Below, piece after piece: positions 5,701 to 59,650 of a DNA stretch of 64,000 bases. Made by a program: the position numbers and the translations under genes. Numbering within the stretch: the stretch's first letter is position 1; every line of letters begins with the position of its first letter. A model generated the notes under the pieces. It did no database searches. It was not told where the DNA came from and worked only from the letters and a program-made list of their open reading frames with translations. Source of the stretch: Psammoneis japonica (Eukaryota). The stretch is taken from the NCBI GenBank assembly GCA_008632985.1, contig QPGO01000002.1:310001-374000 (forward strand). Reading direction: 5' to 3'.

Positions 5701-6280
5701 TCACTGAATGGCTTGATAAAAGCAATGGATGTCTAGAGAAGGGTGTCGTCCCAGAGAAAAACTTCTGGATGGTGCAACACAACGTGAATAGCGCCAAGAT
5801 CGCACCGGCATCCCACACCCGATGCACTTCTTTTCAGCTCGTTGCTTCGAATTTACCACGACTCCTTTCTTCTTGCATGTGGACGATGCACCAAGAAAAA
5901 AACAAGGAGACTCACAGTCAGCTTACAGGACTGGTGATCGAACAGAGCGATTCTGAATCCTTGGAGGCCATTGCCCAGGTTGTCGACGAGCTGCTGCCTG
6001 AAATCAAAAAGGCGCCCAAGGATGCCGTCGTCAACCGTTTGGTGTGTGTATCCTGTTCGGACTCTAAGCTAGTGACTACTGTGCCTCTTTGTGACTTTGG
6101 TCCTTGGGAAGAGAATACTTTTGCTTCGGAGAGTTCCTTGAAAAGATCAAGGCGATTTACGGATAGTGTCCCAGGTAGAGACGCAAACTATCACCAATGT
6201 GGAAATCGAAATCTAAGTGACAGAAGAAAGACACTGTATGTAAACAAGTAAATTATAGTTAGCCAGCTAAAGAAATCAGA

Positions 6281-6384
6281 CAAGATCTTAATGCATTGTG
6301 TTGCCGAAAGATTGGATCTACTAGTCTCGGAATACAAGATCTTAATGCATTATGTTGCCGAAAGATTGGATCTATTAGTCTCAG
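6281..6384. repeat. Two ~50-bp direct repeats
   Basis: caagatcttaatgcatt[g/a]tgttgccgaaagattggatcta[c/t]tagtctc occurs twice in tandem. Confidence 0.85.
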
Positions 6385-6649
6385 GGACCAGCTGCTTCAT
6401 GCCATATATGTTAGATAAAAATAAAGCAAGAAGCATCGCAGCATGCTGGCGGTGTTTACCCTCGCTGATTTGGCATAGTTGCCGTAGTCTCTTTTTTTGG
6501 ATAGCTGGGTGTTCATACTGCAGGCCGGTCGAAGTGTTGGTCGGCAGCTCAAAGCTCCAAACGCAACCGCAGGTCGCAGGGCTGCTGGTGCCGATCCATG
6601 CCGGGCGTATCCCACACAGACACCCACCCTGCAACACCGCCTACTCCAA

Positions 6650-13568: not shown

Positions 13569-14235
13569 CTATGCTACGAGAGAAGCATTGTGCTTGTTTT
13601 CTTTTCCACTCTCGGCCAGCGGTCCTAGTTCGACATCACCACCGCTCGGATGATCCGTATACGGTTCATCGGGAAGCATCTTTTCCATTTCTTCATCCTC
13701 CGGTGGCGGTGGTGCTTGTTGTTGGTGATGTCCGCCGCCTCCCTTTTTTCCAAAAAAGTTGAGAACCATGGCAGACACACTCACGACGAGTCCGGTAAAT
13801 TGAATACCATTCAGCGAATGTCCATAAAAGTAAATGGACGCCACCAGTGTCGTAACCTTGCGCGCCAATCCAATAATGGAACACGTAAGGGCCCCAAATT
13901 TGGCAATTGTGACAAAAATAAAAACCTGTCCGAGTGCACCACTCAAACCGAGTGCCACCAATAGAAAGCCCATTTCTTGACACATTTGTAAAAAGACATG
14001 AACTTGATTGAGTACAAGGAGCGATACTCCCGCCAAGATGGTTTTGCCCAATTGAATATTGTACATTAAATCAAAGGGTCCCACCGAATGGACGCTCATG
14101 AGCTTGTCCTCGTACGCGCCCGTGCCGCCGTCAAAGCAGAGACTGATAAACAAGAGCAGAATACCAAACATTTGAGACGATACGCCACCTACATCTTCGT
14201 CGGCACTGCTCTTTTTGCTCGACTTGGAGTCTCCA
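13569..14235 (-). pseudogene. Duplicated last exon of the UAA-family transporter (5'-truncated copy)
   Basis: 667 bp near-identical to 17242-17908. The splice acceptor (ttctttag) and most of the intron are kept, to ~14338; exon 1 is absent. Confidence 0.85.
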
Positions 14236-14603
14236 CTAAAGAATACAAACATGGTTGGAACGAGGGTTGTGTTAGAAAACAGCTATAACGACAACGGCGT
14301 GACGACGATAGGTAGTTGTTTGTTCCATACTGTATACACTTACGGTTCCATTGCCGGCTGTCCTCCAATTCCAATCCCTTTTCTTTCTCTACTTCTTTTC
14401 TTGTTCTTCCAGAAGAGAGACAGAGCACAACCATAGAAAACTGTCGTCTGACTTTGCAAGCTCTGCAAGCGTTCGCTCGGTAGATGCGCTGTCGGGTCGC
14501 ATCTCCGTGCAGCGCTAGAGTCGTTTCTAATCAGAATCGAGTGAAGACGCTTTGCCAGCTTAAAAAGAAGCTTTTGATTACCGTCTCCCTCTTCAGAGAA
14601 GGT

Positions 14604-17241: not shown

Positions 17242-18829
17242 CTATGCTACGAGAGAAGCATTGTGCTTGTTTTCTTTTCCACTCTCGGCCAGCGGTCCTA
17301 GTTCGACATCACCACCGCTTGGATGATCCGTATACGGTTCATCGGGAAGCATCTTTTCCATTTCTTCATCCTCCGGTGGCGGTGGTGCTTGTTGTTGGTG
17401 ATGTCCGCCGCCTCCCTTTTTTCCAAAAAAGTTGAGAACCATGGCAGATACACTCACGACGAGTCCGGTAAATTGGATACCATTCAGCGAATGTCCATAA
17501 AAGTAAATGGACGCCACCAGTGTCGTAACCTTGCGTGCCAATCCGATAATGGAACACGTAAGGGCCCCAAATTTGGCGATTGTGACAAAAATAAAAACCT
17601 GTCCGAGTGCACCACTCAAACCGAGTGCCACCAATAGAAAGCCCATTTCTTGGCACATTTGTAAAAAGACATGAACTTGATTGAGTACAAGGAGCGATAC
17701 TCCCGCCAAGATGGTTTTGCCCAATTGAATATTGTACATTAAATCAAAGGGTCCCACCGAATGGACGCTCATGAGCTTGTCCTCGTACGCGCCCGTGCCG
17801 CCGTCAAAGCAGAGACTTATAAACAAGAGTAGAATACCAAACATTTGAGACGATACGCCACCGACATCTTCGTCGGCACTGCTCTTTTTGCTCGACTTGG
17901 AGTCTCCACTGTAGAAAAGATACATGGTTGGAACGAGAGCAGGTAGTGTTAGAAAACAGCTATAACAACAACGACATCACGAGGATAGGTAGTTGTTTGT
18001 TCCATACTGTTATACACACTCACCCTCCCATAAAGAGCGCCACACCACCAACAATCATGACGACATTGATATATTTCTTGAGCGGGTATTTCTTTCCCAT
18101 GAGAGCTCCCATAATCATGACGGGTACAGGCTTGCAACTCTTGGCCAATACTTGAATGGGATAAATGACATAGCGAAGCGACCGTACCGAACAAAAGGTA
18201 CTGCCCATGGAAGTGAGTCCCAAAATGGCAAATCGCGCCGGTGGAATGGTGGTGGGTGTTTCGTTGCGTACATAACGTCCTGCCGCAGCCGTCATGGTGT
18301 ACAGCGACGATGTGACAAACAAGAAGGATAATTCGTGCAACTTGCGCCCACCCGAGGTCGTGTACTCCAACAACAACCCGTACGCGACAAAGGAAAACAT
18401 GATTCCCAAAAAACACAAGAGCAACCAGAGGAGTTCTGTTTTTGTAGTTTTCTCTTCCGAAACAGGTTTTTTGTGATTTAGACTTGGATTCTTGTACAAA
18501 TCGTCGGGCTCCACCACGTTCTTGGTAACAGAGGTTTCGGACGAGAGAGAAATATCGGACGAAAGCACGTCGTTGTCTCCTCCACGAATCATTGGAGTCG
18601 TACCGCTGGTAGGAGTGTTATCCAGAGTCACTGAATCAGTGGGTGGAGAAGTCTCGTCTTGATCAAAAGAATTGGCATTTTGGTGTTGTTTGGCCGCTGC
18701 TTCGACGGCTGCGACTGCTGCCGTGCCGACGGTAGTTTTCTCGTTTGACGCACTCGATTTCTTTTTTCGATTGATTGCAGTACTACCAGCACCTCCAGCT
18801 GTCATTACCGTTACTGCGGGTGTCTCCAT
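17242..18829 (-). CDS. UAA-family nucleotide-sugar transporter (SLC35B/UDP-galactose transporter-like), 2 exons
   Basis: Family motif YVIYPIQVLAKSCKPVPVMIMG...KKY, DGGTGAYED, ALGQVFIF...FGALTCSIIGLARK. Intron 17909-18023 (GTGAGT...CTACAG) joins the exons in frame to give 490 aa. Confidence 0.92.
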
Positions 18830-19403
18830 GATGTAGTGTTATTGCTCTTGTTGTGAAAAAGGTAACAATAGCACTAACAACAACACAGCAACAAAACGAG
18901 TGCAAAATGAGTGAAAGAAAATGACCGCGAGAAGCTGGAGTAGTTCGCTTTTTGTGTTAGTTTTCGTATTCAAAGGTTGCTCTTGAATTACGTTTTCAGG
19001 GAAGAAATCCTTATTGAATTTGGGAAGGTTGGACAATTCTTGGTTGTCCCGCAGGCAGTACCGAGTTTTACGTACGTAAACATGTACTGGGCAAGACGTC
19101 ACAGAAATGTCCATCTCCTCATACGAGCTCGCTTTTTGCTTGGAGCTCGAAACTGGTGATACAAGATAGAAGAAGGCTCGTCCGCCGTGCGAGAAATCTT
19201 CGGATCTGCGGGAGATCCGAAAAAAAATCTGCCAGATCTTCACACTTCACACTACTGTAACTGTATGATAGAAGTAGCATGCAAAGCGTTGAAGTCAACA
19301 GTCAACCCATCGGTGGTGCATGATGGTGAATCTCTTTTACTGGTACACGTAAACGCTCATCTCAGTAGTTTGTTCTGGAAAAGGCACCTCCATACCATCA
19401 ATA

Positions 19404-44989: not shown

Positions 44990-45899
44990 CGTGGCTGGAA
45001 CCTCGGCGCTTTCTTCTCGCTTTGGCTTTGTCATCGTCAAAATCAATCGCTCTCACAATATTTGCGTAATATGTGCCTAAGCTTTCGAATGGCACTGGAT
45101 GGAATGGGGCTTAAAAGTCAAATGTCTGACTAGTCGGAATGACTGTGACTCAGTGTGGAATCTGCAAATTTACTTAACTCTTCAGTCATGACAGACATTT
45201 CGATTCCTAATTGTTTCGCCTCTTGGTACCGAGACACCACTGCTTCTGTCTGCCCGCACAGAGTTCGTGGCCCAACGGTTGACCACTAGGCCCTACACTT
45301 TGACCACACTTGGTAAACTGACCTGGTGAAGAACACGCCACCTGGATGCTTCTCTGAGAGCACAGCGTCATGTGCAAACACAAACAAAACAAAGACTTGG
45401 AAGTCAACAAAGTTGTGAGAAGACGACAGTGTGATGAGGTCCCAAACACACCACCCAGCAGCACACACCGAGGCTTGTTGCAAAACGGCTTTCTGGCAGC
45501 AAGTGAGTTTGACAATGCCCTGCATCAGAAAACTGGGTGATCGATGCTGTGCTCTTTTTTTTAAAATTGGGAAATCTAAAGATCATGATGGCAGACCAAA
45601 AAAATTCAAATTGCAGCTTCAGGTGAAAGAAGTGTTGGAAAGGGCTCCAAAGGCAGCGCCTCACAGAGGTGCTTCTCTCACAAGAGAAAGCCCTTGGCCT
45701 GAAACCCAGTGTGCGGTCTGGCACTTGATGGCTCTGCAGAGAGCTTGTGAGATCTCAACAAAGTGATTGGCATGCATTTGAACAAAAGGCGGCAGATTGT
45801 GTGCTCTCACAGCTCAAACTTGTTGAGGGCTCTCAACTTGGCTGCTGGGGAAAGAGCTTTGGGCCACACCATGCTGGGGCACCAGCTTCATCTGGCGCA

Positions 45900-48209
45900 C
45901 TGGCTCTGAAAAGGCCAGCAGCACCAAGAGCTTGTTGACATTTTTAAATGGATTCCAGATCCACATCTGTTGGAAGATTCAAAATCATGTTGCAGTGGAG
46001 CCCCGCCACTCTTTGAGAAATCTTGAGAGCATCATGGTGCGGGAAGCAATGTCGCAGCGGAGCACTGCTGCCACTCTTTGAGAGATCTTGAAAGCATGAT
46101 GTGGGAAGCTGCACACACACTGCACAGTGGGCACTGCTTGTCTCCAAGACTCTGCAGAGGATGAACATGAAGCAAGATGTGCTCAAGATGTTGAGGGCAA
46201 TTTTGGTGCATTTTTTGCTTGCCCACAGAAATTCAGGATTGCACATTTTGAAAAGCAGTGGCCAGCACATCGTCAATGCCAGCTCACTGCAATGCAGCAG
46301 CAGCTGAAAACCCTCACCAGCCAACTCACTGTCATTGTCGTGGGTGCAACCATTTGGGCATGGGCAGCACAACAGCCAGCAATTTTGAAGCTGCCAAGTG
46401 ACGCAGTGCTGCAACATCTTGTTTTCAATTTGAGTGAGTTTGGTCATCACATTTGAAGCCATCATGTCTGACACATCAGCACACTAAATTTGCCAATGTT
46501 CCAAGCCCAAGCTCAATTTTCCAGAGCCCAAGCAAGTCAACAGCAGCTTCAGACCAAGGTGGCAACAACACTTTGCACTGGGGAAAACTGCTGCAGCGAT
46601 GACCCAAAGTTTTCAAATGCTGACAACTGGTGCAGCAAAGTTCTTTGCAATGATGATGCAAAGAGCATGATGTCAAAAAGGTGTGCCAATGCAGAGTGCC
46701 CTCAATGCAGGCCACCTTCAGCATGCCCATGAGTGCTCTAAAAGAGGGAGGTTCTCAGGCTTGCTCTGCTGCAAATGACTGTGTGAGACAGTGCATCAAG
46801 AGGGGGGATCATCCCTGTGGTGTTTGCCTGGAACAGCCGCAGCATTTGAGTGAGATTGTTTGTGGCATTTGTTTTTGAACACAAATGTTGTTGTTTGAGA
46901 ATGTTGTGCACTGTGATCGAAGTGCAGTGAAGATGGCAATCTTGACATTTCTGCAAAATGCAGTGGTCTGTCCACCCACAAATGTTTGGTGTGTGTGAAA
47001 CCTTTGACACACAACAAACATGAAACAGATGAGAGTTGGCAGACAGGCCACCTCCACATCGCAGACTTGTGGTTTGATGTTTTCACCATGGAGCATGGTG
47101 AAATTCAGAAAGAAAAATCATTCAAATCACAAGATGTTTGACCAAATGGAGTCCAACAAAGCCCCAAATGACCCTCCTGGATGACAATGCCATGCAGCAT
47201 TTAATGCTGCACACAGCAGAAGTCTGGAGTTGTGTTTTGCAATTGTCAGAGCAGGCATCAAAACAAGGTTCAAGTGGTTTTGCTTGATCTGTCTTTGCTG
47301 TGATCTGCTGTGTGATTTTAAATTTTTGATGGTGACGTGCTCACTGTCCCAATGAGTCTTGCATGTCAGCTGATGAGGGTGAGCCATCAAAAGACAAAAA
47401 GAGATGGGTGGCACTCAATTGCTTGTTCACAAAGAATGACCAAAAAGCAAAAAATGGCAAATTGACTGGCCAGGGGCAGTCATTCTTCAACCAAAAAGCA
47501 ACTTGAGGAAATTCAAAATAAAATTTGGCATCTTTCATGCACACACATGAAACAAATCAAATGTCAGCTCTGAAGCCCTCAAAAGTCTTTGGGTGCAATT
47601 TTCCACACAAAAAGGACTGCTTGCAAATTTGGTTGTTTGTGATCAGCCCCCCAAACCCCGGCTTTGTCTTGTCTGTCTGTCTCTGGTTGGCCACAGCCAT
47701 GGGGGTGGGTCAAGGGGGGACACACAGACGGATTGTGGAGAATGATCTTAAAATTGACTGCAGTTAATTGCCATTTCTCACATGCTGCCTGTGATGATTG
47801 TAAAAGGCACTTTTGCCATGCACAGTCAATCTGATTGCAAGTGCCATCACCACAATCATGGTTGACTGCAGCTTGATTGCAGAGTTGGTGCAGCTGCCTC
47901 TTGATTGCAACAAAGTGGTGGTTGCTCATTCACAGCAATGCAATGTCTTTTTGCAAACTGGTCATGATTCAAAATTCTGCAATTTGGGAACCCTGAAATT
48001 CTTGAGTGCACACAAAGTGAGACTTTCATGATCCGATGGTGCAGCTGCCTGCTGTCAAACAACATTGGACAGAGTGCTCCAAAACACATGATGACTGCCA
48101 ACAGCTCCTTCTCAACAGTTGAACATCCAGCTCCACCTTGCAACTTGCAAAGCCCTCTTTTTACACTCCAGTCATCAGGAAAGGAGCTTGCGTGGCTGGA
48201 CTTCACAAG
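45900..48209 (-). mobile_element. Old degenerate Gypsy pol remnant (RNase H + integrase)
   Basis: STVEKELLAV (RNase H), CTSCQHLK...PPWSEAAVDLLGLWKI and HDNDSELAGEGFQLLL (integrase), with frameshifts; TA and CG depleted. Confidence 0.75.
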
Positions 48210-48641
48210 TGCAGCATGCCTCGCTGCTGGACAACACGGCGAGACCGTGCATGAGCCTCTTGCACGTGGCAACGTAGTGTTGTCAACACGCACCTGGGAA
48301 GCACGACCACAGGAAGGCGTGGCTCTAGGTCTCAGGCAATTCCAGAAGGATGCCAAGAGAGCATCCGTGTGAAGCACACTGGCCCGTCGTCTGGCCCACG
48401 ATGGCAGCGTGATTCCACACGATGACATCACTCGTGCATGGCGCGTGATGGCTTGATTCACACGATCCACAATGCAAACGCACGATCGATTTGATGCGAT
48501 CCAAATGCGAACGAACAGGGATTTGGCAAGATTCCCCATTTGCACGATCCCATTTTTTCTACTCTAAACTGGCTCACAATTTTCACAACGACAAAGTCGT
48601 AACACATCTTCTTTTTCAGCGCCTGGCACATGCATGGGGCA
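48210..48641 (+). repeat. 5' LTR
   Basis: tgcagcatgcc...catggggca, colinear with 54770-55201 without indels. Confidence 0.93.
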
Positions 48642-48702
48642 CAGCAATGTCACTCCCGCATGTTGTGCGAGGTGACGAAATCTGCAGAAACGAAACTACG
48701 AA

Positions 48703-49779
48703 ATGTTGGCAGGACCGACAAATCTCAAAACGACCATGAAGAAGCAGATTGAGCCGCTGATTCCGTTCGCATGGCCGGAGAAGAAAGAGCTGCAGCAGGG
48801 CGAGCACCAGACGTTCAAGCCACGTGACAACCCTGCTGATCCGGACAGTCCAATGCACGAGATGGGCATCCCGCACCTTTCTACGGCTACATGCGAGACA
48901 CTCCCAATCTTTCCACACAACGTGGATTGCATGCACGAAGGACAAAACATCACGACCGGGCCAGCGAAATTTGCCCTTGTGCGTGACCTGCTGCAGGGCG
49001 ATGCTCTGACGTCATTCAATGATGCCGCTGACAAGCAGGCATCCCAAACCAACACTGCGTGCGCAGCATGCATCGTGAAGCTAAAGCAAAGCATCTTCCC
49101 ACATGGGGCGGCACTGTTGCAGAAGCGTTGTCTGAGGCGCTTCATGCGCAAGCCCGCAGAGGTTTCCACTCGTGACTGTGTCGCGAGGGCTGTTGAAATT
49201 AACGGCCACATCTCTCAGTTTCCACCCGTGACGGAGGATGGAGAAGCACCGGCACCATCACCTGATGACGAACTGTGCGACATGTTCGAGTGCGGTGTGC
49301 CGAGCGCATGGCAGAAGTTCATGACGTTACAGAATTTTGACCCGTTGGCGCATGCTGTCGCCGAATTTGTGCAGTTCTGCGAGCGCATCAAGCAGGTCGA
49401 GCTTGCCGAAGGTAACCAGGACCAACATGCCAAGGTTCCACGCAAGCGGGGACGTAGAACGGACAATCCTGAGTTGTTGATCACGACCCAACGGAACAAC
49501 CAGAAGTCATGCATGCTGCATGGGATCAACTGTGGACATCACACGGAGGATTGCCGTCAGCTTGAGCACCACGTGAAACGTGTCAAGACTGGACATTCCA
49601 ACAACGGAGGCAGCAAGCCCAATGCAAAACCTCAGAATGAGGAAGACATCAATGCTCTTGTCGGATCGAAGGTCGAGGAGTTCTTTGCCAACGCTCAGAA
49701 AAAGCGCAAGGCACGCGAGGAGGAGCTCAGTCACTTCCGCGACCTCAACTTGAGTGATTCCGAAGACTCGGACGCCTGA
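48703..49779 (+). CDS. gag: Gypsy gag-like ORF (mutated)
   Basis: Follows the 5' LTR. RRFMRKP, CGVPSAWQ and the zinc-knuckle-like CMLHGINCGHHTEDC. No Tyr in 358 aa. Confidence 0.8.
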   Translation: MLAGPTNLKTTMKKQIEPLIPFAWPEKKELQQGEHQTFKPRDNPADPDSPMHEMGIPHLSTATCETLPIFPHNVDCMHEGQNITTGPAKFALVRDLLQGDALTSFNDAADKQASQTNTACAACIVKLKQSIFPHGAALLQKRCLRRFMRKPAEVSTRDCVARAVEINGHISQFPPVTEDGEAPAPSPDDELCDMFECGVPSAWQKFMTLQNFDPLAHAVAEFVQFCERIKQVELAEGNQDQHAKVPRKRGRRTDNPELLITTQRNNQKSCMLHGINCGHHTEDCRQLEHHVKRVKTGHSNNGGSKPNAKPQNEEDINALVGSKVEEFFANAQKKRKAREEELSHFRDLNLSDSEDSDA

Positions 49780-50240
49780 GAAGGGGGCCGACACGACACA
49801 GGCAGTTTTAACACATTGGATGAATGTGTGAATGAACAACTGAATTACCATCGTACACGTGTTGCAGGCCAATCCCGCAAACGAGTTAAAAAGACTCATC
49901 TCACTCCAATCTTGTTTGTGGCTGTGAATGCCAAACATGGCAAGGGCAAGACTCAAACCATTGAGGCACTGCTAGACAGTGGCGCCAGCAGCACTCTGCT
50001 CGATGGTCGACACTGCAAACGTCTGCGAAGCCATTCAACGGCTGAGACAAACTGGGCTGCGGCAGCAGGCTCGTTCAGTGCGTCTGACGACTGCACCGTT
50101 AAATTTCGGTTGCCAGAATTATCCGAAACTGCAGAACTTAAACATGCCGTCCACGTGCACAACGGAAAGTTGGGCAAGTACGGTGTGATTATTGGACGTG
50201 ATATTCTGGAGACACAAGGCATTGACATTGTCTTCTCTAA

Positions 50241-51164
50241 GACCCCGTCCAAACTGGATCGTACTTGCGTGCTATCGCAGTTGAGCATGGCCTGCTTTAT
50301 GACGTCACGAGCCATAAAAAGGGAGTCGTGTCCAAACAGCATCGTACTTGCGTACATGAGTACTATCATACCCAAAAAATTAGTCGAGTTACTCATTTCT
50401 GACATCACCGGAGCGCGTAACGAGTGGATGCGACACAAGTCGCCATGGCGATGTGTGGTTGTTTTTGACAGCTTCTTTCGATTTTGCCACTTTATAAGTA
50501 ACACCAATCGATAATATGAAGCGGATATGATATGTTACGGCAAAAAAATGTTAAAATATTGTGAACTTGTTGCTGAAATAGACCTTTTGTATTCAAAGGA
50601 ATTTTTTCTGTCTGTTGCATCATACAAAGTCAATGCATGAGGTGGCTAAACTAGATCTGTTAGGCCCAACAACAACCTTATCGACTAATTTAGATACGAA
50701 GGATTTAATGGGTTTATTTGTATGTGGTGTGACTTTAGAGTAAGGGTCGATATGGCCCGAGAAGAATGTGCAGAAACGTTCAAATGAAAAGTTTCTGAAA
50801 TCACCCCGTAAGTCTAACGTTATTTCACTGAACAAAACAAGAAACCACACCTACACACTAAGTAAAATATGGCGGTTCTAATAAGGTTACTTTTATCATC
50901 ATAAGGTAAAACTTTGATGCCGCTGTGGGCCGTCATCTTCATTCGTCGTGATGCTGTTTTTCGTGCGAGCGGGGGTATGATGTCAGGGGTATGATGTCGC
51001 GAAGGAACAGACAGGGCCGGTGGTCTCTGTTCCTGACGCGAGATCGTATGGCCTAAATATTGTAGAATCATAGGGCACATAACCCTAAAAAAGTCGCAAA
51101 GCGCCTTTTTTAGGCCATACTCAAGTACGAAAGTACGCAAGTACGATCCAGTTTGGACGGGGTC
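50241..51164. mobile_element. Non-autonomous PIF/Harbinger-like element nested in pol
   Basis: 30-bp perfect TIR gaccccgtccaaactggatcgtacttgcgt (~54 bp imperfect) and TAA duplication. Removing it restores the pol frame IVFSKQMIEWP. Confidence 0.9.
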
Positions 51165-51644
51165 TAAACAGATGATAGAGTGGCCATTAGTCAATGGAGA
51201 AGTACCAATGAGGCACGTAGATGCTACGGTAGAAACCTCCTTCTATCTTCAAGATCCAGAAGCCTTATCGTCGGAAACCGACCGGATTTCGCGTATCTTA
51301 GACGCTAAGTACGCGCCGGCATGCCTCGAGGACATAACGCGAGGGACAATAGGACTTTCTATAGTTCAACAAAACGACCTTTTGGCACTATTGAAACGCC
51401 ATGAGTCCTTATTTGATGGGACATTAGGAGAATGGAAGGGAGAACCCTACCATATCCAACTCAAAGAGGGTGTAGAACCATACCACGCTCGTCCGTATAA
51501 AGTACCTCGTGCGTACGAAGCTACGCTACGTAAGGAAGTAGAACGCCTAGTACGTATCGGTGTTCTCAAACGCGTTAACCGATCCCAATGGGCAGCTCCA
51601 TCATTTATCATACCGAATAAAGATTTAACGGTACGCTTTATTAA

Positions 51645-52091
51645 CACCGCATCCACGGATTCACCAGGCAAAATTGGCAAAAGTCGGGTATGGATAAAAG
51701 TGTGCATTTGGTCAAAATCGATTTTTGAGTGCAAATGGTGGTGTCTTTAGGGTCCCTTTAGTGAGCCGAACACGCACATTTCTCATTTGACCATCACAGG
51801 TCCGTCTTATGGGGGGTGTCAAAACGTCGTGCTTTGACGCGTCTCGAGGATTAATCGTTATATAATGTATTCAGCCATTAAGGTTATATAAAATTGAAAA
51901 TTCACACATTAAAGCACGACGTTTTGACGTCCCCCGTAAGACGACCTGTGATGGTCAGATAAGAAATGTGCGTGATCGGCTCACTAAAGGGACCCTAAAG
52001 ATGCCACCATTTGCACTCAACAATCGATTTTGACCAAATGCACACTTTTTGCCATACCCGAGTGTTGCCTGGTGAATCCGTGGATGCGGTG
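51645..52091. mobile_element. Foldback MITE, piggyBac-like (TTAA target), nested in RT
   Basis: ~190-bp inverted arms starting caccgcatccacggattcaccaggcaa; flanks are TTAA (left) and TCAA (right). Removing it restores RFINDFREL. Confidence 0.9.
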
Positions 52092-52852
52092 TCAATGATT
52101 TCAGAGAGCTGAATGAACGGATCAAGCGATTGCCTCATCCGATTCCTCACATCCAAGATGTGCTCCTTAAGCTTGAAGGCTTTATGTGGGCTGCATTGCT
52201 GGATTTAAACATGGGCCATTGTCACATCCGATTGGATGCTGACAGCAAGAAGCTCTGCACGCTCATCTTCCCGTGGGGCAAGCATGAGATGCAGGTGTTG
52301 CCCATGGGGTCATGCAACTCGCCAGACATTTTCCAAGAACGCATGTCAGGCTTGTTTGAAGATCTGTCGTTCGTTCGAACGTGCTTAGATGACCTTCTCG
52401 TCGTGACGAAAGGCACCTGTGAAGATCACCTCAACAAACTTGAAGAAGTTTCATTGAGGGTGCAGAAAGCAGGACCAAAAGTTAACGCAACTAAGTCTCA
52501 CTTCTGTCAAACCCAATTAGAATGCTTGGGTCATCTGGTCAACAGAAACAGAATGCGACCAACACCTGGCAAAGTCGACGCCATCAAGCGAATCGCGACC
52601 CCAGCCAATGAACGCGACCTGCGGTCATTTGTTGGCATGGTGAACCACTGCCGCGACACGTGGATTAGACGTTCTGAAGTCTTGGCTCCGCCAACACGAC
52701 TCGCAAGCGAGACTGTCAAGTGGGAGTGGACGTCCGTTGAAGACGAGGCGTTCGAAACCGTTGAACGGGTGACATCGGATGATGTTTCATTGTCACATCC
52801 TGATTTTAATGAACCCTTTGAGACACACACCGATGCCTCTAAATGTCAATTG

Positions 52853-53165
52853 AAACAGCAATCTTTCGCGCTGTAGAGTCATTTACGCAGAAATGTGCAG
52901 AACAGCACCAAGACAATTGTTGAAAAGTCTGTCTGTCTGTCCTTAGTGAATTTTAACTTTGCGAAAAATGGACTTGACTGTTTTCTGATCAGGTGCATTT
53001 TTCTTCAATGCATTTGCAAAAATGCGCCTGACCCGACAACAGTCAAGTCCATTTTTGCACAAATTGTGTGAACATGTCAGTTTCAGCACAAAAACGTGTA
53101 GATTCTACAGGCGTCCGCAATTGTTTTATGCTTTTTACGTCACGGGTCATTTTCGAAAGATTCCC
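52853..53165. mobile_element. Small MITE-like insertion in RNase H
   Basis: Interrupts DASKCQ|LGA; ATTG on both sides. Internal ~43-bp inverted repeat (aaaaatggacttgactgtt / aacagtcaagtccattttt) and a short terminal match aatctttcg/cgaaagatt. Confidence 0.75.
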
Positions 53166-54757
53166 ATTGGGAGCAGCCACATCCCAAGATGACAAACCCA
53201 TCGCCTTTCACAGCAGAAAGCTCAATGGCACGCAATTAAATTGTGCAACAACGGAGAGAGAACTGCTCGCCATTGTGGAGACGTTGTCAGAATTTCGCAC
53301 GATTCTCCTTGGTCATCTGCAATTGTGTGTGCTGATCATAAAAATCTTGCGCACAAAGTGTTCAATGCCGAGCGCATTATGCGCTGGCGGTTGACATGCG
53401 AAGAATGCGGTCCCGAATTACGCCATGTTGAGGGTGCCCACAACCCAGTCGCTGACGCTCTTAGTCGCCTTCGGCTGGCACCCAGCTTGCCTTCTGAGGC
53501 CAATCCGGATGCAAAAGACACTCCATCGAGTCGTCCTTTGCATGAAGCTTTTAATGCAGATGCTCAAGATGAGGTGTCTCTGCCTGTTAGCTTCAAGCGC
53601 ATTCAAAAAGAACAACAAAAAGACAAGCGCCTGCTCTCACGAGCTGAGGACTCGTCCGACTGCTCCATTCGCGCGCATCGTGGGGGAGGGTCATCACGAC
53701 AGTTAATCTGTCATAAGGACAAAATCGCAGTGCCACAGTCATTGCAGGTTCCGCTAACTGAATGGTGCCACGAGACACTGTGTCATCCAGGTGAGACATG
53801 TGCGGAAATGTCTGTTGCCCAGCACTTCTGCTGGCCTGGCATGAGGTCTACGGTGCATTCTACGTGCGTCAAGTGCGATCGATGTCAGAAGACAAAACGC
53901 CAAACGCAGCGTCATGGGAAGCTGCCAGAAAAGGTCACCGAGATAATTCCATGGGAGACTCTGTGCACAGATGTGACAGGGCCACATAAAATTCAAAGAC
54001 GCGGAAAGGACACTTTGCAATTGTGGGCGGTCACAATGATTGACCCAGCAACCGGGTGGTTCGAGATTAAAGAAGTGTCTGCGAAACGTGCAGACGTCGC
54101 AGCAAACGTCGTAGAACAAACGTGGCCATGCAGACATCCGTGGCCAACCCAGGTGGTTTATGACCGTGGGACAGAATTTGTGGCAGAATTTAGCCAGATG
54201 ATTAAAAATGACTGTGGGATTTTGAAGAAACCCACAAGCAAACGGAATCCACAGGCGAATGCCACAGTGGAACATGTGCGCCAGACACTTGGCAACATGG
54301 CACGTTCCTTTTCAGTGCAGGATGTGGAACTGGATGAAGATGACCCATGGAGTGGCATCCTCTCCGCAGTGGCCTTCGCCGTTGGAGCTACGGCACACAC
54401 GACCACGCGTGCAAGTCCCACGCAATTGGTCTTTGGACGCGATGCGGTTTCATCTGTTGCCCATCGTGCTGAGTGGAAGCACATAGAAACCAGAAAGCAG
54501 AAGCTTGTCCACTTAAACAACAAGCGTGAAAATCAGAAACGCAAGGAGCATCAAAACACCGCAGGGCAATTGGCACTTGTCAAACAGGAACAATCCTCTA
54601 AATGCGGTTCTGACAGCTGTGCAGGACCCGCCAGAGTTGTCCGTGTGTGTGACAACGGCACGTTGCGCATCCAGAACGGAGCTCTGACAGATGCGCACAA
54701 TCTACGGCAGATTGCACCCTGTCACCAGTGGACATTCTGTCACTTAACGGCCCCGAT

Positions 54758-54769
54758 CATGGGGGAGTG
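54758..54769 (+). other. Polypurine tract
   Basis: catgggggagtg immediately before the 3' LTR. Confidence 0.75.
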
Positions 54770-55201
54770 TGCAGCATGCCTCGCTGCTGGACAACACGGC
54801 GAGACCGTGCACAAGCCTCTTGTGCGTGGCAATGCAGTGTTGTTGACACGCACCTGGGAAGCACGACCACAGGAAGGCGTGGCTCTGGGTCTCAGGCAAT
54901 TCCAGAAGGATGCCAAGAGAGCATCCGTGTGAAGCACACCAACCCGTCGTCTGGCCCACGATGGTGGCGTGATTCCACACGATGACATCACTCGTGCATG
55001 GCGCGTGATGGCTTGATTCGCACGATCCACAACGCGAACGCACGATCGATTTGATGCGATCCAAATGCGAACGAATGGGGATTTGGCAAGATTCCCCATT
55101 CGCACGATCCCATTTTTTCTACTCTAAACTAGCTCACAATTTTCACAACGACAAAGTCGTAACACATCTTCTTTTTCAGCACCTGGTGCACACATGGGGC
55201 A
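54770..55201 (+). repeat. 3' LTR
   Basis: Direct repeat of 48210-48641. Confidence 0.93.
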
Positions 55202-55899
55202 CAAGCCTTTGGCCTCGCTGCATTGCTTGGGTGCCGGTTTTTTCTGTGCTTGGTGCTGAGGGGGGTGCACCCCCTCCTTGTGGACTCTGTTTTGGCTGCT
55301 CTGGTGTGGCACAGCCATGACTGCCATGGCCACCCATGACTGCTGTGGCTGCTGCTGTGGTGGTTTTTGTGGACTTGTTCTGGACATGGCGGATGCACAC
55401 ATGTGCAAAAAAATGCACATTTTTGCATGCAGCACATGGCCCAAACTTGTGGCACAATTTCAATGCAACAAAGGAGAGAAACTTTCCAATGTGGAGGCAT
55501 GGGCACATGCAGAGATGTCTTGGGCATGTGCTGTGCCCAAATGATCATTTCTGAGGACATTTTTTAGCTCCAAATGGTGCTGCAAGATGAGAACTCAATT
55601 CTCCTTCTTGAGCAATTTGTGTTCATGTCAATGTGCTGACACACAAGATCTGTGAACATTTTTTGTGCAAATTGAGCCAGCATGAACAAAGGCCAGCTTG
55701 CACACAGTGTGTTTTGTTCATGCATTTTGGTGGTCATCACACAATGGCTTCAACAACACACCAGCCAAGCAACAAAATGTGCAACTGCTGAATTGTGAGA
55801 AAAACAAAAGCAGCACAATTGGTGCACCCAGATTTTGCCACAGCATTTGCAAGACTAAAAACACACACACACACTAAATTGACTTGCAGAGGCATTGCA

Positions 55900-58800
55900 C
55901 AGCCATCTCACATGCACTGTGTGTTGTTTTGAGCCCAGTTGACAGTGTTGGGACTCTTCTTGTGCCATCAGATGGTGTGTCTTGTTGATTTGGCATGGGC
56001 ACAGGGACAGACCAGTGCCATCTGTCCAGCAGGGGCATCTGGAGTTAATCTGAGATGAGGGAACTTGTGAGTCTCTGAGGCATTGGTGGGTGAGTTGCCC
56101 TCATGATTGCACAGTGCTGAAAATTTTGCATTGACAAAGCTGCACAGTTCTGATTGAGGCTTCTGCCACTCACTCAAAATCTCTCTGCTGGCCAGCTGCG
56201 CACAGGATGGCTTGAGCATCCTTGCCAATCAGCAGCCAGACCATCACATGATTGATGCCACAATGGGGGCAAGAAAAGATGGCATTGATCAAGGCATGCA
56301 TGTGCTTCTTCTTCTCCTTTTTGTGGTGCAGCAGGACTTGTTTGGGGGGGCTTGGATGCATGGGATGGCACATCTGTGTCAGCCACTCCCAACATCCATG
56401 GTTGCATCTGCACTCCATTCCCACAAGCCTCTGGATGAAAGATCTCCATGAGATCACCATCTCTGGACTTGTTGATGATGGTGACTGGGCTTGATGGATT
56501 GTTGGGCTGGCTGTTGGTGGCTGGGCTTCCAGAGGTGCAAACAGTGGGGGGTTGGAGTTGTCAGCAGGCAACCATGCTTGGGTTCTTTTGATTGTTGCAG
56601 AGTCAGGAAGAAGTTTTGCAGCAGCACTTGAAATTTCCATGCTGCAGCAGAGCAGTTGGCACACCAAGGAGTGATTGCATCTGGGAAAGGCTGGGACATC
56701 TTGTGGATCATCAGCAGCAGAAGAAGGTCCAACCCATGCACTGCCATGCCCACTGGATTGCCCTGTGTGATGCCTTCCTTGCTGTGGAGGAGGGCAAGTG
56801 CTCCTCCAAGGTTCCCACACCATGGGCAATCAAGACACTCCAGTGCTTCTTGCAGCAATTGAAGGCAAGCTGAGTGCCAGAAGGCCATTTGTGCCTGTCT
56901 GTCAATTTGCAAAAAAGAAACTGCAGTTGTCCTCAAATTTGTGTTGTTTCCAGAGCAGGTTCTTTACAGTGCAAACACCACCTTCAATGCCTGCCTCCAA
57001 TCCAGCACACAGTTGGTCTGCACCCCATGTGAGCCTCTTCAGTTTCAGCTCCAAAAACCAGGAGAATGGCTTTGGCCATGGCTCATTGCCATGCCTTCCC
57101 TGTGCTGACCAGGTGGATGCCCAGATTTCCATCCAATGCTGCAATGACTCTCTTTGCCATGCAAGCCCAACAGGCTGCCCAGGGGGTGACTCATTTGACA
57201 ACCAGTTTGTGAATGCACACAAATGCTTCTCCAAGTGATCTGCTGGCTTTTCCATGACAGAGAAGCCATTGTGTGATGAGGCATTGACACCAGATCCACC
57301 AAGTCCTGTGCTCTCCCACAATCTTTGTGTGGTGGCATTGACGACACTGTCAGTGATGACAACATCTTGGAGCTCAGGCAACTCATCACTGTGTTTGGGG
57401 AATTGGTCTTCTTTTGGAACCCCAGACTCCAGATGTTTGCTTGCAAGATCTCCTGCACCATGTTCTTTCCTTGTCTTCTTGTCCACATCATCTGACAACA
57501 GCACTCCACCTTTTCCCTGCTCAGCGATGCACCCAACTGCACCTCTTGAAGGGGTTCTTCACAGCGCCATTCTGTTGAGTGCGCTGGCATGCTGCTTGGG
57601 CATTTTGCCCTTCTCAGCGGACTTGAGATTGCTTGCAAGCAGACACTCAGTGGATTTCACCAGTGTTTTGTGTTTGTCCATGCTCCAACTGCCTGTCCAC
57701 TGGCCTGGACAGCAGGGCTCTGATTTCCTTTGCTCCTTTTGCACTGCAAGCCCACTGCAAAACAACAGCTTGAAACACCACAGGCCTGCCTCTCTGTCTG
57801 GGCTCCATTTGCATGTCTTGACTTCATGAAGCAACTCTCTGCCAATGTTGCAATGAATTGTTTTCCTGCTCTTGCCAAGTTTGATTGTCCAGTGTTCCAC
57901 CACCCAGCAGATGAGTTCAGTCATTTAGATTGCATGTTTTGCCACATGCCTTGCAAATGAGCTGTTCAGCTTCTGAGCTGAAGTTGTTGGGTGTTGTGTC
58001 AGGGTTGACCTGTGGTGGGATGATGACTCCCTCCCTCCAAGTCTCCTTTGCCCTCTGACTGCTCTCTTTCCCTTGAGGCAGTGTTGACCTCCTCACCAAT
58101 TCCACCCTCATCATTGTCCCTGCACCTTCTTGATCAATGGGTGCAGTGTTCTCTTTGTTGGCTTTGGGGCTGGCCTCTTTTTCTCTTTTGCCAACATCAT
58201 CAGTGGCATTGGAGACAGTTGACAATTTTTTGGCTGAAGTGGGCTGGTTTCCAGGGAGGTCAGAAGTTTCCAAGGCTTCTCATCTGACTGTGTTCCTGTT
58301 GCTTGAGCCAGACGTGTTCCAGCCGTGGAGGTGGGAGCTTGCACTGCAGTGCTGACATGTGACACAGTTGTTTTTTGTCATCCGTTGCATGTTTTGTGTG
58401 CACATTTCTGCATGTTCTCTTTCCCAAAAGTTCCACACTCCCTGTTTTGCGAGGCCCAAGAGACTTTTTGTCAAGTGCATTTCTTTTGTGGGGACAACAT
58501 TGCCCCAAGGTGCACTCTTCAATGTCTGAAGAGTGCACTGGCGGGCCTGAGCAAGAAATGACTTGCTTGAATCATGCATGGACGAGTCTGCATGTGCATT
58601 TGCAAAATTGCCTCTTTTTTTGTCGTCAGTCATTGACACATTCATCACCTGACAATTTTGCTGTGGAGCTCACACAGAATTCAGTGGGCCCAATGTCACA
58701 CAGACTCCCACCTGGGTCTGGAATGCATTGCCACTGGCAGGGAGTCCAGCTTTGTTTTTACATTTGGTGAAGCAAGTGCAACAAATGCATGGCTGGTCTT

Positions 58801-59230
58801 TGACATGGGCAAGCATGGGTTTGGCCGGTGGGTGCAGACACATGTGCAATTGCAGCATGTTTCCTTGCTCTGTTGCTTCTGTGTTGTTTCTCCTTCTGAG
58901 CAAGCAGGGCCAGATCTCGAGTCTCCACTCTTTGTCACTCCACATGAAGCTTCAATGGTGACAGCTCTGAACTGCCTTGGTGTGCCCTTTTTGGGTCTTC
59001 CATCAACGTTGGTTTGTCCAACAGGGTTCATTGACTGACGTCACTTTGTGTCTCGTGTGTCTCCCGCACTCTCCGCAGCATTGTTTGTGACTCCACAGCA
59101 ACCAAAGGGCATTGTTTGTGAACTTGCTGAAAGAATGTCGCAAGCAAAAAGAGGCTTTTGATGTCAATGAAAACTGAGGCCAGTCGCAACTCCGGTCCGG
59201 TGTGCTCTCCGCCTTCCGACGACTGGCCAA
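55900..59230 (-). mobile_element. Degenerate non-LTR retrotransposon (CRE-like RT)
   Basis: QLCAGLEAGIEGGV, WPSGTQLAFNCC, SKEGITQGNPVGMAVHGL (QGDP motif) and PWCANCSAAA (WYADD equivalent), across frameshifts. The 5' extent is uncertain. Confidence 0.7.
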
Positions 59231-59650
59231 TGTGAAAATTATTTATGTATGCTATGGCCCCCTAATAACCGGTGACCAGGGAGTGTCACACCTACACTCG
59301 TTGAAACAAAAATGTCAACCATACTAGTTGTGAATGTATAATTGATTCATTGACAACATGCACAGTATCACATTTTTTGTAATGTAGTCGATATAACAAA
59401 TGAATTTTCTCTATTGCCTACCTAAATACACATATAAGGCATATAATGGTATGTGTATTCGCCATTATTTTAGTTAATTTTAATTTCAAGAAGCCATACC
59501 GGAAAGTCCGTTCTTAAATTTCAAATTTTAAACGGCACATCAACCCCCTTTTCTCACCAACGGTAAACGGGCAAGATGCTTGTCACACTACATACAAGTT
59601 AATCATTCCAGCGGTCAAAAAGAGGGCTCCGTTGCTAGTTGATCTTAACG

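Follow-up and report, generated by a model that had tools for sequence, protein, structure and literature searches.

A TA-rich reverse transcriptase segment between two nested MITEs in a TpA-hypermutated LTR retrotransposon of a diatom-like genome

An exempt patch within a TA-depleted retrotransposon

How does a short piece of a retrotransposon keep its TA dinucleotides when nearly all of those around it have been converted? In the window (the whole 64,000-nucleotide stretch of DNA analysed), nearly all TA dinucleotides of a Ty3/gypsy-type LTR retrotransposon at 48,209–55,203 now read CA or TG. Exempt is a contiguous, essentially unmutated 2-kb patch that consists of a nested insert (MITE1), a ~476-bp segment of reverse transcriptase (RT; hereafter the island) and a second nested insert (MITE2) (Table 1).

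The element has the layout of a Ty3/gypsy (Metaviridae-type) retrotransposon: two LTRs surround gag, followed by protease, RT, RNase H and integrase, with Pfam matches to RVP, RVT_1, RT_RNaseH_2, Integrase_H2C2 and rve in that order, and a probable target-site duplication of 4–5 bp (CAAG) was read by eye. Pol is colinear through the patch: residues 2–169, 161–321, 320–573, 570–621 and 626–1096 of P0001 fall in order on the protease, the island, the RT core after MITE2 and RNase H–integrase, and these segments are likewise colinear with 64 full-length Pol homologs. MITE2 is short, non-coding and multicopy, with terminal inverted repeats and a 2-bp target duplication, originally TA, that now reads TA on the left (51,642–51,643) and CA on the right (52,093–52,094); we take it to be Stowaway-like, mobilised by Tc1/mariner. 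MITE1 is flanked by TAA on both sides (50,238–50,240 and 51,165–51,167), its inverted ends are 90% alike and an empty site exists; it is a candidate Tourist-like element, presumably mobilised by PIF/Harbinger, at a length that is long for a MITE. A third nested insert, ins3, is absent from at least one other copy of the retrotransposon. No further copies of the LTR, the MITEs, ins3 or the island were found within the window, no similarity was found between its depleted blocks, and a Pfam search with 12 long ORFs of these blocks gave nothing credible. An atlas search with one host ORF was uninformative, with scores of at most 0.86.

Table 1. Coordinates and composition of the retrotransposon, its nested inserts and the depleted regions of the window
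Feature	Positions	Strand	Observations
Depleted block	1–5,700		Approximately TA- and CpG-free: TA odds 0.03–0.09, CG 0.09–0.38, CA+TG ~1.7–1.9x
Left flank	45,300–48,208		TA 0.4, CG 0.9, CA+TG 22.9 per 100 bp
5' LTR	48,209–48,643	+	5 TA, 29 CG
gag-like ORF, 367 aa	48,676–49,779	+	Without Pfam match; TA 0.7 per 100 bp
Aspartic protease (RVP)	49,780–50,240	+	49,780–50,099 depleted; 50,100–50,240 intermediate
MITE1, 924 bp	50,241–51,164		Terminal inverted repeats ~50 bp; TA-rich
Island, N-terminal part of RT	51,168–51,643	+	In frame, stop-free, 42 TA
MITE2, 449 bp	51,644–52,092		Perfect terminal inverted repeats of 23 bp; long hairpin whose arms are 81% alike
RT core and RNase H start	52,095–52,852	+	Hypermutated; 10 TAs left, all in TAA/TAG-type contexts
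ins3, MITE-like, ~313 bp	52,853–53,165		Hairpin-containing; 8 TA, each in a resistant context
RNase H and integrase (Integrase_H2C2, rve)	53,166–54,764	+	Hypermutated; one frameshift near 53,317
3' LTR	54,769–55,203	+	4 TA, 31 CG; 94% identical to 5' LTR
Right flank	55,205–59,240		Strong TA and CpG depletion; abrupt end at ~59,240

An earlier note on this DNA had described the island as TA-rich and the pol and gag sequences around it as stripped of TA, and the density of TA along the element bears this out. Per 100 bp, we count 8.8 TAs in the island (42 in 477 bp), 7.2 in MITE1 and 4.5 in MITE2, as compared to 0.7 in gag, 1.1–2.1 in RT after MITE2, 1.6 in RNase H–integrase and 0.9–1.1 in the LTRs; the host-gene part of the window has 4.2. 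The same note had called the protease next to MITE1 intermediate, which holds for its final ~140 bp (4.9 per 100 bp; 7 TAs in 144 bp at 50,100–50,243) and fails for 49,780–50,099 (1.6 per 100 bp), and its limits for the island lie within 1–2 bases of those of the in-frame RT segment. CA and TG follow the opposite trend to TA, with 8.8 per 100 bp in the island and 17–20 in the mutated parts, so that the sum of TA, CA and TG is nearly constant across segments at 18–21 per 100 bp.

The left edge of the patch, inside the protease, is fuzzy over at most ~65–140 bp; two TAs in susceptible contexts survive at the protease end, at 50,179 and 50,202.

TpA-specific mutation after integration

We scored as strict tyrosine columns those with at least 80% Y among at least 30 of the 64 full-length Pol homologs. 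The island, which the earlier note had credited with keeping its tyrosines, retains them in 2/2 strict columns, and protease-b in 1/1. By contrast, the flanks keep 0/19, namely 0/9 in the RT core after MITE2 (5 H, 4 C) and 0/10 in RNase H–integrase (6 H, 3 C, 1 N), with 18/19 changed to H or C. Under a looser 60% rule, tyrosine is kept in 3/4 island columns versus 0/22 flank columns (Fisher p=0.0015), and the YxDD and GYYH motifs of the mutated element read CLDD and GHCH. Within the island, 55 of the 59 strongly conserved columns are intact. Where the island has TA in conserved Y, I, L and V codons, the flanks have CA or TG: conserved isoleucines have become ACA or ATG there, and conserved leucines CCA, TCA, TTG or CTG. 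Together with the constant sum of TA, CA and TG, and with unmutated metagenomic relatives that reach a rho_TA of 1.18, these codons sustain the proposal that the ancestral element was TA-rich. CGN arginines were lost at 0/5 conserved positions in the island versus 2/19 in the RT core and RNase H–integrase, counts too small for dating.

We also considered a RIP-like conversion of CA to TA as the source of the island's TA excess and rejected it: the ORF is stop-free and has kept its conserved H, Q and W codons.

Between the LTRs we count 26 differences in 435 positions, exclusively transitions, which group into 18 events: 8 CA versus TG, 3 TA versus CA/TG, 6 CG versus CA/TG and 1 other. Thus, 17/18 events are conversions among TA, CG, CA and TG, and the sole difference outside these dinucleotides is one G/A adjoining a discordant site. 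At least 11 TA sites mutated independently in the two LTRs after integration. Because LTRs are identical at integration, these transitions place mutation on chromosomal DNA rather than solely on pre-integration RNA, in agreement with what had been surmised from the sequence at first reading. One CG/TG difference, at 55,033, looks like a change of TG to CG relative to all other copies listed, and so not every CG-type LTR difference is decay.

Mutation also depended on context, with a 3'-neighbour preference of pyrimidine over G over A. TAs that survive in the mutated parts lie in TTAA, CTAA, GTAA and CTAC, almost only TAA/TAG contexts, and all 34 surviving TAs of the deep flanks have TAA on one strand. 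The mutated parts are therefore saturated, and context does not explain the island, where 18/42 TAs lie in the highly susceptible contexts ATAT (1), ATAC (5), GTAC (6) and ATAG (6), as compared to 2/57 in the mutated parts of the element (p=1.4e-6). A chance origin of the island is excluded. The notion that its TAs sit by luck in unattacked contexts could appeal to the context bias of the process and to the identity of the survivors, yet this same comparison rules it out, and we regard it as scarcely credible.

At its right end the patch stops sharply. Within MITE2, susceptible-context TAs persist up to 52,055; at 52,093 the TA of the duplication has already become CA, and a probable replacement of Y by H comes next at ~52,136. 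The boundary at the nested insert is sharper than ~80 bp.

Explanations for the escape of the island

We compared this copy with contigs from three sequencing runs of one sample (40 of 678 variant rows). The retrotransposon family is multicopy, with a summed contig depth of 10,000–40,000 versus ~60 for single-copy flanks, a ratio that suggests hundreds of copies. Among the contigs listed, both MITEs are private to this copy: empty MITE2 sites occur in at least six contigs of other copies, the filled site being 451 bp longer than the empty one, and at least two joints and at least four loose ends skip MITE1. The summed contig depth of MITE2 is ~2,500, and that of MITE1 is ~280, versus ~60 in both cases, suggesting few MITE1 copies; over 621 bp, MITE1 shows 6 differences from other MITE1 contigs (99% identity). 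A TA-rich island in every mutated copy that lacks the MITEs would have spoken against the earlier note, and as far as seen this is not the case: one MITE2-less contig differs at 18/143 island positions, the window having 16 TA and 14 CG there. Another contig is near-identical to the island (3 differences in 163 bp).

More distant relatives were sought in metagenomes and among proteins. A first metagenome scan for close relatives found none; a profile scan yielded 554 relatives, from which a set of 80 at 45–60% identity was retained, and none of these 80 is TA-hypermutated (minimum rho_TA 0.56), the loci having been picked via conserved peptides, which biases the set against mutated copies. A protein search with the island gave 134 matches, the best of them reaching 61% identity along the full island and 78% along one half, with no same-species copy among the 134.

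That mutation came later than MITE insertion, as the earlier note had it, is hinted at by the target duplication of MITE2, a single site whose left copy is still TA and whose right copy has become CA, and by three private TA to CA/TG changes in MITE1 relative to the other MITE1 contigs listed (50,271, 50,434 and 50,639, all in its left half). The mutated state of ins3 and the nesting itself are neutral or point the other way, nested insertions normally being younger than their host element.

Our preferred reading, which we hold tentatively, is that the island escaped through isolation by the two MITEs. In this diatom-like genome, certain blocks undergo regional post-integration hypermutation of TpA to CpA/TpG (A:T to G:C), and over longer times the same blocks also lose CpG. 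The element was hit after integration, with ~5.3 kb cleared of practically all susceptible TAs (those with a pyrimidine as the next base on one strand or the other); on our reading, MITE1 and MITE2 would have entered this copy ahead of the bulk of the hypermutation. If targeting needs a long uninterrupted retroelement stretch, or spreads along the element and halts at heterologous inserts, then the short RT piece between the two inserts, and the inserts themselves (449 and 924 bp), may never have been engaged. The chemistry would most simply be adenine deamination in a T-A-pyrimidine context, which we take to resemble the U33-A34 substrate of TadA/ADAT-type deaminases.

Several observations bear on isolation by the MITEs, a reading that rests on n = 1. 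It is supported by the asymmetry of the MITE2 duplication, by the three private MITE1 changes and by the apparently mutated island of another copy; counter to it, the insertion-first order depends on one dinucleotide and three MITE1 sites. Also counter to it, saturation extends to the 758 bp of RT that separate MITE2 from ins3 and to ins3 itself (313 bp). For a length rule to hold, its threshold would thus have to fall between 477 and 758 bp, or else ins3 arrived later, already mutated: the unmutated lengths are 477, 449 and 924 bp, and the mutated ones 758 bp, ~2,000 bp or more and the 313 bp of ins3. Insulation by the inserts is countered by ins3, which insulated nothing, and by the MITEs themselves, which are without a tRNA or other known barrier element; a tRNA scan and an Rfam search over the MITEs for possible pol III barrier elements found no tRNA, and MITE2 and ins3 gave only sub-threshold matches to miRNA-like hairpins. 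A need for homology is countered by the deep flanks, which are mutually unrelated and appear single-copy in the stretch assessed by contig depth (~60–74 over 47,317–47,950 of the left flank). In the chlorarachniophyte Bigelowiella natans, a single-copy viral region is hypermutated according to the main text of a preprint (Mettrop et al., bioRxiv 2026, 10.64898/2026.01.13.699255), an observation at odds with any strict need for repeats or homology.

The strongest competitor has the whole element mutated first, young MITEs inserted afterwards, and the RT segment restored by gene conversion or double recombination; the donor could have been an ectopic active copy, or an allele on the homologous chromosome if it bore the same MITEs. 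An all-or-none pattern (18/42 versus 2/57) is what a sequence absent during the mutation episodes would show, donors exist given the depth of the family (10,000–40,000 versus ~60) and the near-identical island contig (3/163 bp), and the 99% identity of MITE1 to other contigs (6/621 bp) means that it may be young. We nevertheless consider this course of events unlikely. The tract, ~50,179–52,092, spans both MITEs, so that its donor would need both, and the other copies listed lack them; two separately restored patches, each stopping precisely at an inner MITE end, would take two coincidences at once; and the divergence of ~10% between mutated and unmutated sequence should hinder recombination, as is expected at that level of divergence. 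Moreover, the CA of the right MITE2 duplication would imply a further TpA mutation once MITE2 was in place, at a site of the most resistant type (TTAA), with MITE2 and the island left clean. An artefact would dispense with biology altogether: in a high-copy family and a diploid genome, an unmutated MITE-bearing copy or haplotype may have been stitched into a mutated copy. Only 57% of sampled 31-mers of 47,900–55,500 are present in the best run, all contigs listed differ from the window at several places, among them 51,270 and 51,465 in the island and 50,434 and 50,639 in MITE1, and none of the contigs listed (the longest records) spans a MITE/island junction. Missing words are expected, however, where contigs drop rare copy-specific repeat variants, and a chimera would have to accommodate reading frames and target-site duplications that are exact at 4/4 junctions, a Pol that is perfectly colinear across the patch, and ~60x contigs that run through the LTR/flank junctions on both sides, each with a single mismatch. 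We judge such a chimera improbable.

Editing before integration fares worse still, and the LTR pair largely rules out editing at the RNA level. An ADAR-like activity would have hyper-edited RNA or cDNA, a template switch would have brought in an unedited RT piece, and the MITEs would then have landed in the sole TA-rich target. Both MITE types do need TA or TAA targets, whose density in the island is ~6–7x that of the mutated parts, and A:T to G:C change with a 5' T fits the neighbour preference of ADAR as given in the main text of the preprint (10.64898/2026.01.13.699255). With at least 11 LTR TA sites mutated after integration, however, the island too would have been exposed in situ. Both strands are similarly affected, H outnumbering C only 11 to 7 at conserved tyrosines and CA being about as frequent as TG in the segments, and the non-retroelement flanks are depleted even more. 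We give this scenario very little credence.

Relation to known systems and implications

Our literature search found no TpA-destroying hypermutation besides that in the B. natans preprint, whose supplements lay outside the search, and none in diatoms. In the preprint's main text, 230/231 mutations that newly arose in two viral regions are A to G or T to C at TpA, the rate is ~1000-fold above background and active in some lines only, and an ADAT2/TadA-like adenine deaminase is hypothesised as the agent (10.64898/2026.01.13.699255). The two cases share an almost exclusive A:T to G:C change at TpA on chromosomal DNA, giving CpA/TpG; here it is seen in LTR differences (26/26 transitions, 17/18 events) and in the conversion of tyrosine to H or C (18/19). 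They also share a regional arrangement in TpA-poor, CpA+TpG-rich clusters, here the blocks at 1–5,700 and 45,300–59,240 as opposed to the host-gene region, with an edge at ~59,240 where 6 TAs occur in 30 bp. TpA-poor coding sequences in B. natans are, by the same main text, enriched in reverse-transcriptase and DDE domains, a further likeness. The LTR element is of mobile origin, and the deep flanks have no recognisable family or mutual similarity.

The differences are as follows. The host here is diatom-like (Stramenopila; the host genes of the window match diatoms) as opposed to a rhizarian, the targets are an LTR retrotransposon and its surroundings as opposed to giant-virus and virophage inserts, and the process is read from sequence comparison rather than from mutation-accumulation data. 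Old blocks are also CpG-depleted here, while CpG, MITE, LTR and 'boundar' have no mention in the text of the preprint; a 3'-neighbour bias, saturation, a sub-kilobase unmutated patch and a boundary of less than ~80 bp are particular to this locus with respect to the preprint's Results and Discussion, to which its supplements may add.

RIP (repeat-induced point mutation) in Neurospora and other fungi resembles this process: it too hypermutates chromosomal DNA by transitions after integration, ruins transposable elements and marks them with a bias in dinucleotides. Repeats must reach ~0.4 kb if linked, or ~1 kb if unlinked, for RIP to act, and a 476-bp fragment that goes untouched would parallel this limit. 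The direction is opposite, however: RIP acts on C:G to give T:A, mainly turning CpA into TpA and raising TpA, whereas here TpA is destroyed, CpA and TpG rise, and the base attacked is A or T rather than C. Repeat dependence, moreover, is a trait of RIP, and the deep flanks here look single-copy where contig depth allows a judgement. Decay of methylated CpG offers a partial likeness, in that the oldest blocks show CpG odds of 0.02–0.4 with an excess of CA/TG, and some conserved CGN arginine codons of the element read TGT or CAT; in diatoms, DNMT5a is described as methylating transposable elements (PMC9998398). CpG loss alone cannot remove TA, however, and the young element combines near-complete TA loss with CpG odds still at ~0.85. 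ADAR and APOBEC likewise produce deaminase-type transition clusters in retroelements, and ADAR prefers a 5' U; the changes here differ in being post-integration, on both strands and also in non-retroelement flanks.

What this locus adds is proof from an LTR pair of post-integration action, a ranking of 3' neighbours (pyrimidine > G > A) that any candidate enzyme has to satisfy, and a natural targeting experiment in which a 476-bp piece of a saturated element fully escaped. In practical terms, gene prediction and repeat annotation in such genomes can be led astray by blocks with CA+TG at nearly 2x expectation and ORFs free of TAA/TAG stops. If the escape reflects isolation, the hundreds of family copies with nested inserts would allow a direct measurement of recognition length, which is how the length rule of RIP was defined. 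As a more doubtful extension, diatoms may own a mirror image of RIP: a TpA-directed, DNA adenine-deaminating defence that would act on integrated copies and sense ~0.5–0.75 kb of uninterrupted element, to which fragments between foreign inserts would be invisible. Such a defence, shared by or convergent between Stramenopila and Rhizaria, would operate alongside the decay of methylated CpG, the two together turning both palindromic YpR dinucleotides into CA/TG. The same signature in an apparent diatom would bring a second lineage, and an ecologically dominant one, within the range of the phenomenon.

A TA-rich island in a depleted retrotransposon

Dinucleotide odds revealed the window to be a mosaic of two sequence kinds: content is ordinary at ~6–45 kb and 59.2–64 kb (TA odds ~0.6, CpG ~1.0), while at 1–5.7 kb and 45.3–59.2 kb TA odds fall to 0.02–0.1 and CpG to 0.02–0.4, with CA+TG at ~1.9 times expectation. 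Host genes lie in the ordinary part, among them an ankyrin-repeat ORF and two UAA-type nucleotide-sugar transporter genes; a transporter exon query returned 662 relatives, and all organism-named matches were diatoms (Mayamaea pseudoterrestris at the top, 91% over half of the query; further relatives in Fistulifera, Fragilaria, Cylindrotheca, Grammatophora, Aulacoseira and Pseudo-nitzschia). On this basis the source was taken to be a pennate diatom. The transporter pair, with ~4 kb between its members, looks like a local host-gene duplication.

The first depleted block and the two deep flanks of the LTR element (see table) carry long ORFs on both strands that are stop-free because TAA and TAG have been destroyed; no Pfam family was found in these ORFs, and no mutual similarity among the three blocks. 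Old TEs or viral inserts are among the candidate origins of these blocks. Contig depth in the left deep flank is ~60–74 over 47,317–47,950. At the right edge near 59,240, zero TA over kilobases gives way to 6 TA within 30 bp, and a similarly abrupt change marks the left edge, near 45,314; the edge of the first block is gradual, near 5,700–6,050. Adjoining that gradual edge, just within ordinary sequence, is a short tandem duplication of ~50 bp at 6,280–6,390 (...aagatcttaatgcat..gttgccgaaagattggatcta..tagtct...).

Features of the window and TA density along the LTR element
Feature	Position	TA per 100 bp	Properties
First depleted block	1–5,700		
UAA transporter, first copy	13,569–14,282		minus strand
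UAA transporter, second copy	17,242–18,838		minus strand; split by a short intron
Left deep flank	45,300–48,208		
LTRs	48,209–48,643 and 54,769–55,203	0.9–1.1	94% identity to each other
gag		0.7	
Protease	49,780–50,099	1.6	
Protease, last 144 bp		4.9	
MITE1	50,241–51,164	7.2	~50-bp inverted ends; TAA duplication on each side
Island (RT segment)	51,168–51,643	8.8	
MITE2	51,644–52,092	4.5	449-bp hairpin; perfect 23-bp terminal repeats; 2-bp duplication, TA left, CA right
RT after MITE2		1.1–2.1	
RT2 (RT core and start of RNase H)	52,095–52,852		
ins3	~52,853–53,165	2.5	third nested insert; contains a hairpin
RNase H-integrase	53,166–54,764	1.6	
Right deep flank	55,205–59,240		

Within the second depleted block lies a Ty3/gypsy-type LTR retrotransposon. 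It opens with a gag-like ORF, after which Pfam places protease, RT, RNase H and integrase in this order, and its Pol is colinear with 64 full-length metagenome homologs. Taking out each nested insert together with one duplication restores the pol reading frame, and the empty sites of all three are present in other family copies, on contigs of one sample: MITE2 is skipped in at least 6 contigs, joining 51,642 to 52,094/52,095; MITE1 is skipped by at least 2 joints and at least 4 loose ends; and ins3 is absent from at least 1 contig. Both LTR/flank junctions are spanned by contigs at ~60x, each with a single mismatch, whereas summed contig depth over the element is 10,000–40,000, so the family must have very many copies. 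The RNase H region is frameshifted at 53,317–53,321, where other copies vary by several small insertions and deletions. The putative ins3 duplication reads ATTG on both flanks.

The earlier note had described the RT segment as TA-rich and the rest of pol and gag as TA-poor, and density along the element agrees (8.8 vs 0.7–2.1 per 100 bp); CA+TG moves the opposite way (island, 8.8 per 100 bp; depleted parts, 17–20). The TA-rich island is thus a real and significant observation. The protease beside MITE1, which the note called intermediate, is so for its last 65–140 bp at most, since the only susceptible TAs surviving on the left side are at 50,179 and 50,202; the remainder is depleted.

Direction, context and timing of the mutation

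To compare conserved residues we defined tyrosine columns as those where 30 or more homologs are present and ≥80% of them have Y. Such tyrosines are kept at 2/2 columns in the island and 1/1 at the protease end, as against 0/9 in RT2 (now 5 H and 4 C) and 0/10 in RNase H-integrase (6 H, 3 C, 1 N), bearing out the claim that the island retains its tyrosines. Strongly conserved columns are kept at 55/59 in the island, 117/148 in RT2 and 177/212 in RNase H-integrase. Against the nearest relative, P0106, the last 83 island residues show 78% identity, whereas the 232 residues that follow reach only 58%, although they belong to the RT core and would usually be the more conserved of the two. Of 11 conserved leucine columns in the island, 6 use TTA or CTA, while those in the flanks have TTG, CTG, CCA or TCA; conserved isoleucine columns have ACA or ATG. 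Together, these codon states show that change ran from TA to CA/TG and that the ancestral element was, as proposed, TA-rich.

Among 80 unmutated metagenomic relatives (kept of 554, picked via conserved peptides), rho for TA spans 0.56–1.18; the island, at 1.24, is at the top of this range and RT2, at 0.21, far below it. Island composition is the exact reverse of the mutated state, with TA (1.24) and CpG (1.34) in excess and CA+TG (0.71) in deficit, and one metagenomic locus, L022, is nearly identical to it (1.18, 1.35 and 0.76). Active lineages of the family could be under pressure in this direction. TA hypermutation was absent from all 80 loci; five (L018, L020, L077, L049 and L026) combine normal TA with strong CpG depletion (rho 0.09–0.29), the ordinary result of methylation decay in hosts other than this one.

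The 57 TAs surviving in mutated parts of the element are TTAA (14), CTAA (13), CTAC (12), ATAA (7), GTAA (6), CTAG (3), ATAG (1) and GTAC (1), with no ATAT or ATAC, and the 34 deep-flank survivors are CTAA (14), TTAA (13), GTAA (5) and ATAA (2), so that TTAA and CTAA make up 27/34. TAT and TAC are therefore lost first, TAG next and TAA last: the A on each strand is attacked best with a pyrimidine 3', less with G and least with A, and the mutated parts are saturated for good contexts. The natural substrate of TadA/ADAT is U33-A34, and by analogy this 3'-neighbour bias would be compatible with a TadA/ADAT-like enzyme. All 10 RT2 survivors, judged by eye, are in resistant contexts. Context resistance of the island itself is essentially ruled out: the four best contexts hold 18/42 island TAs vs 2/57 elsewhere in the element (p=1.4e-6). 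MITE2 retains a susceptible TA 38 bp inside its right end, at 52,055; the right duplicated TA at 52,093 is now CA, and a probable Y-to-H change follows at ~52,136. The unmutated patch therefore stops on the right where MITE2 stops, with a boundary less than ~80 bp wide.

Both LTRs of an element are made from a single template when it integrates, so their differences date the mutation. Mismatches occur at 26/435 aligned positions, all 26 transitions, grouped as 18 events: at 8 sites one LTR has CA and its partner TG, so that one ancestral TA mutated independently in each; 3 are TA vs CA/TG; 6 are CG vs CA/TG; and 1 is a G/A difference adjoining a discordant site. Substitutions of other kinds were absent from these 435 positions. 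This pattern shows that chromosomal DNA was hypermutated after integration, much faster than by background mutation, and it settles in favour of the earlier proposal that the origin was not at the RNA level. The six CG-type differences are polarised only in part (at 55,033 the 3' LTR has CG vs TG in all other copies, among the contig variants listed), while the old depleted blocks have clearly lost CpG. This private TG-to-CG transition at 55,033, like private A-to-G changes after G or A at 50,183 and 49,304 (against all other listed contig copies), hints at some weaker activity on sites other than TpA, unless it reflects noise in the assembly or consensus.

A process described once before

In a full-text literature search, a single paper described hypermutation of this type: a 2026 bioRxiv preprint on Bigelowiella natans. 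According to its main text, 230 of 231 new mutations in integrated giant-virus and virophage regions were A to G or T to C, all at TpA; only some lines were affected, at a rate ~1000 times that of background; kilobase windows poor in TpA and rich in CpA+TpG form 124 clusters in the genome, reverse-transcriptase and DDE domains are enriched in TpA-poor coding sequences, and the proposed agent is an ADAT2-like deaminase (10.64898/2026.01.13.699255). The window bears a signature of that same type. The strings 'CpG', 'MITE', 'LTR' and 'boundar' have zero occurrences in the main text of the preprint, and its Results and Discussion make no mention of a 3'-neighbour bias; relative to that text, the window adds another host lineage, LTR-pair proof, CpG co-depletion, the 3'-neighbour bias and a sub-kilobase unmutated patch. 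According to a paper on diatom methyltransferases, diatom TEs are CpG-methylated through DNMT5a, and diatom DNMT4 enzymes are akin to the RIP factor RID (PMC9998398). DNMT5a methylation explains why CpG has decayed; it does not explain why TA was lost. The process in the window is a variant, with new features, of the hypermutation described once before.

Escape of the island

We tentatively favour escape in situ, at slightly less than even odds: MITE1 and MITE2 would already have been present when the bulk of mutation occurred, and a targeting step would have passed over both of them and the short stretch of RT that they cut off. Consistent with this, the MITE2 duplication is mutated on one side only, the patch boundary coincides with the MITE2 end, the left half of MITE1 carries at least 3 private TA-to-CA/TG changes and the right half none (among the variants listed), and a MITE2-less copy differs at 18/143 island positions, over which the window carries 16 TA and 14 CG. 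However, the order of events rests on thin evidence, the 758-bp RT2 piece and 313-bp ins3 are both saturated, a search of the MITEs for barrier elements, tRNA genes for example, turned up none, and the deep flanks, together with a single-copy viral region in the B. natans preprint text (10.64898/2026.01.13.699255), indicate that repeats are not obviously required. In contrast to MITE1 and MITE2, ins3 is TA-saturated, and was either present while mutation ran or copied from an already mutated source.

Young MITEs with an island restored later by conversion are an unlikely alternative, as the donor must carry both MITEs, or two patches must end exactly at inserts, and the mutated MITE2 duplication would still need explaining. 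Less probable again is an assembly or haplotype chimera in this high-copy family: the copies are contigs only, with no junction-spanning record among those listed, but frames and duplications are exact at 4/4 junctions. Editing before integration is essentially rejected, since the LTR pair shows post-integration mutation. Escape in situ has two versions, a length threshold and insulation, which a single case does not separate; the island is nonetheless a valuable single natural experiment (n=1).
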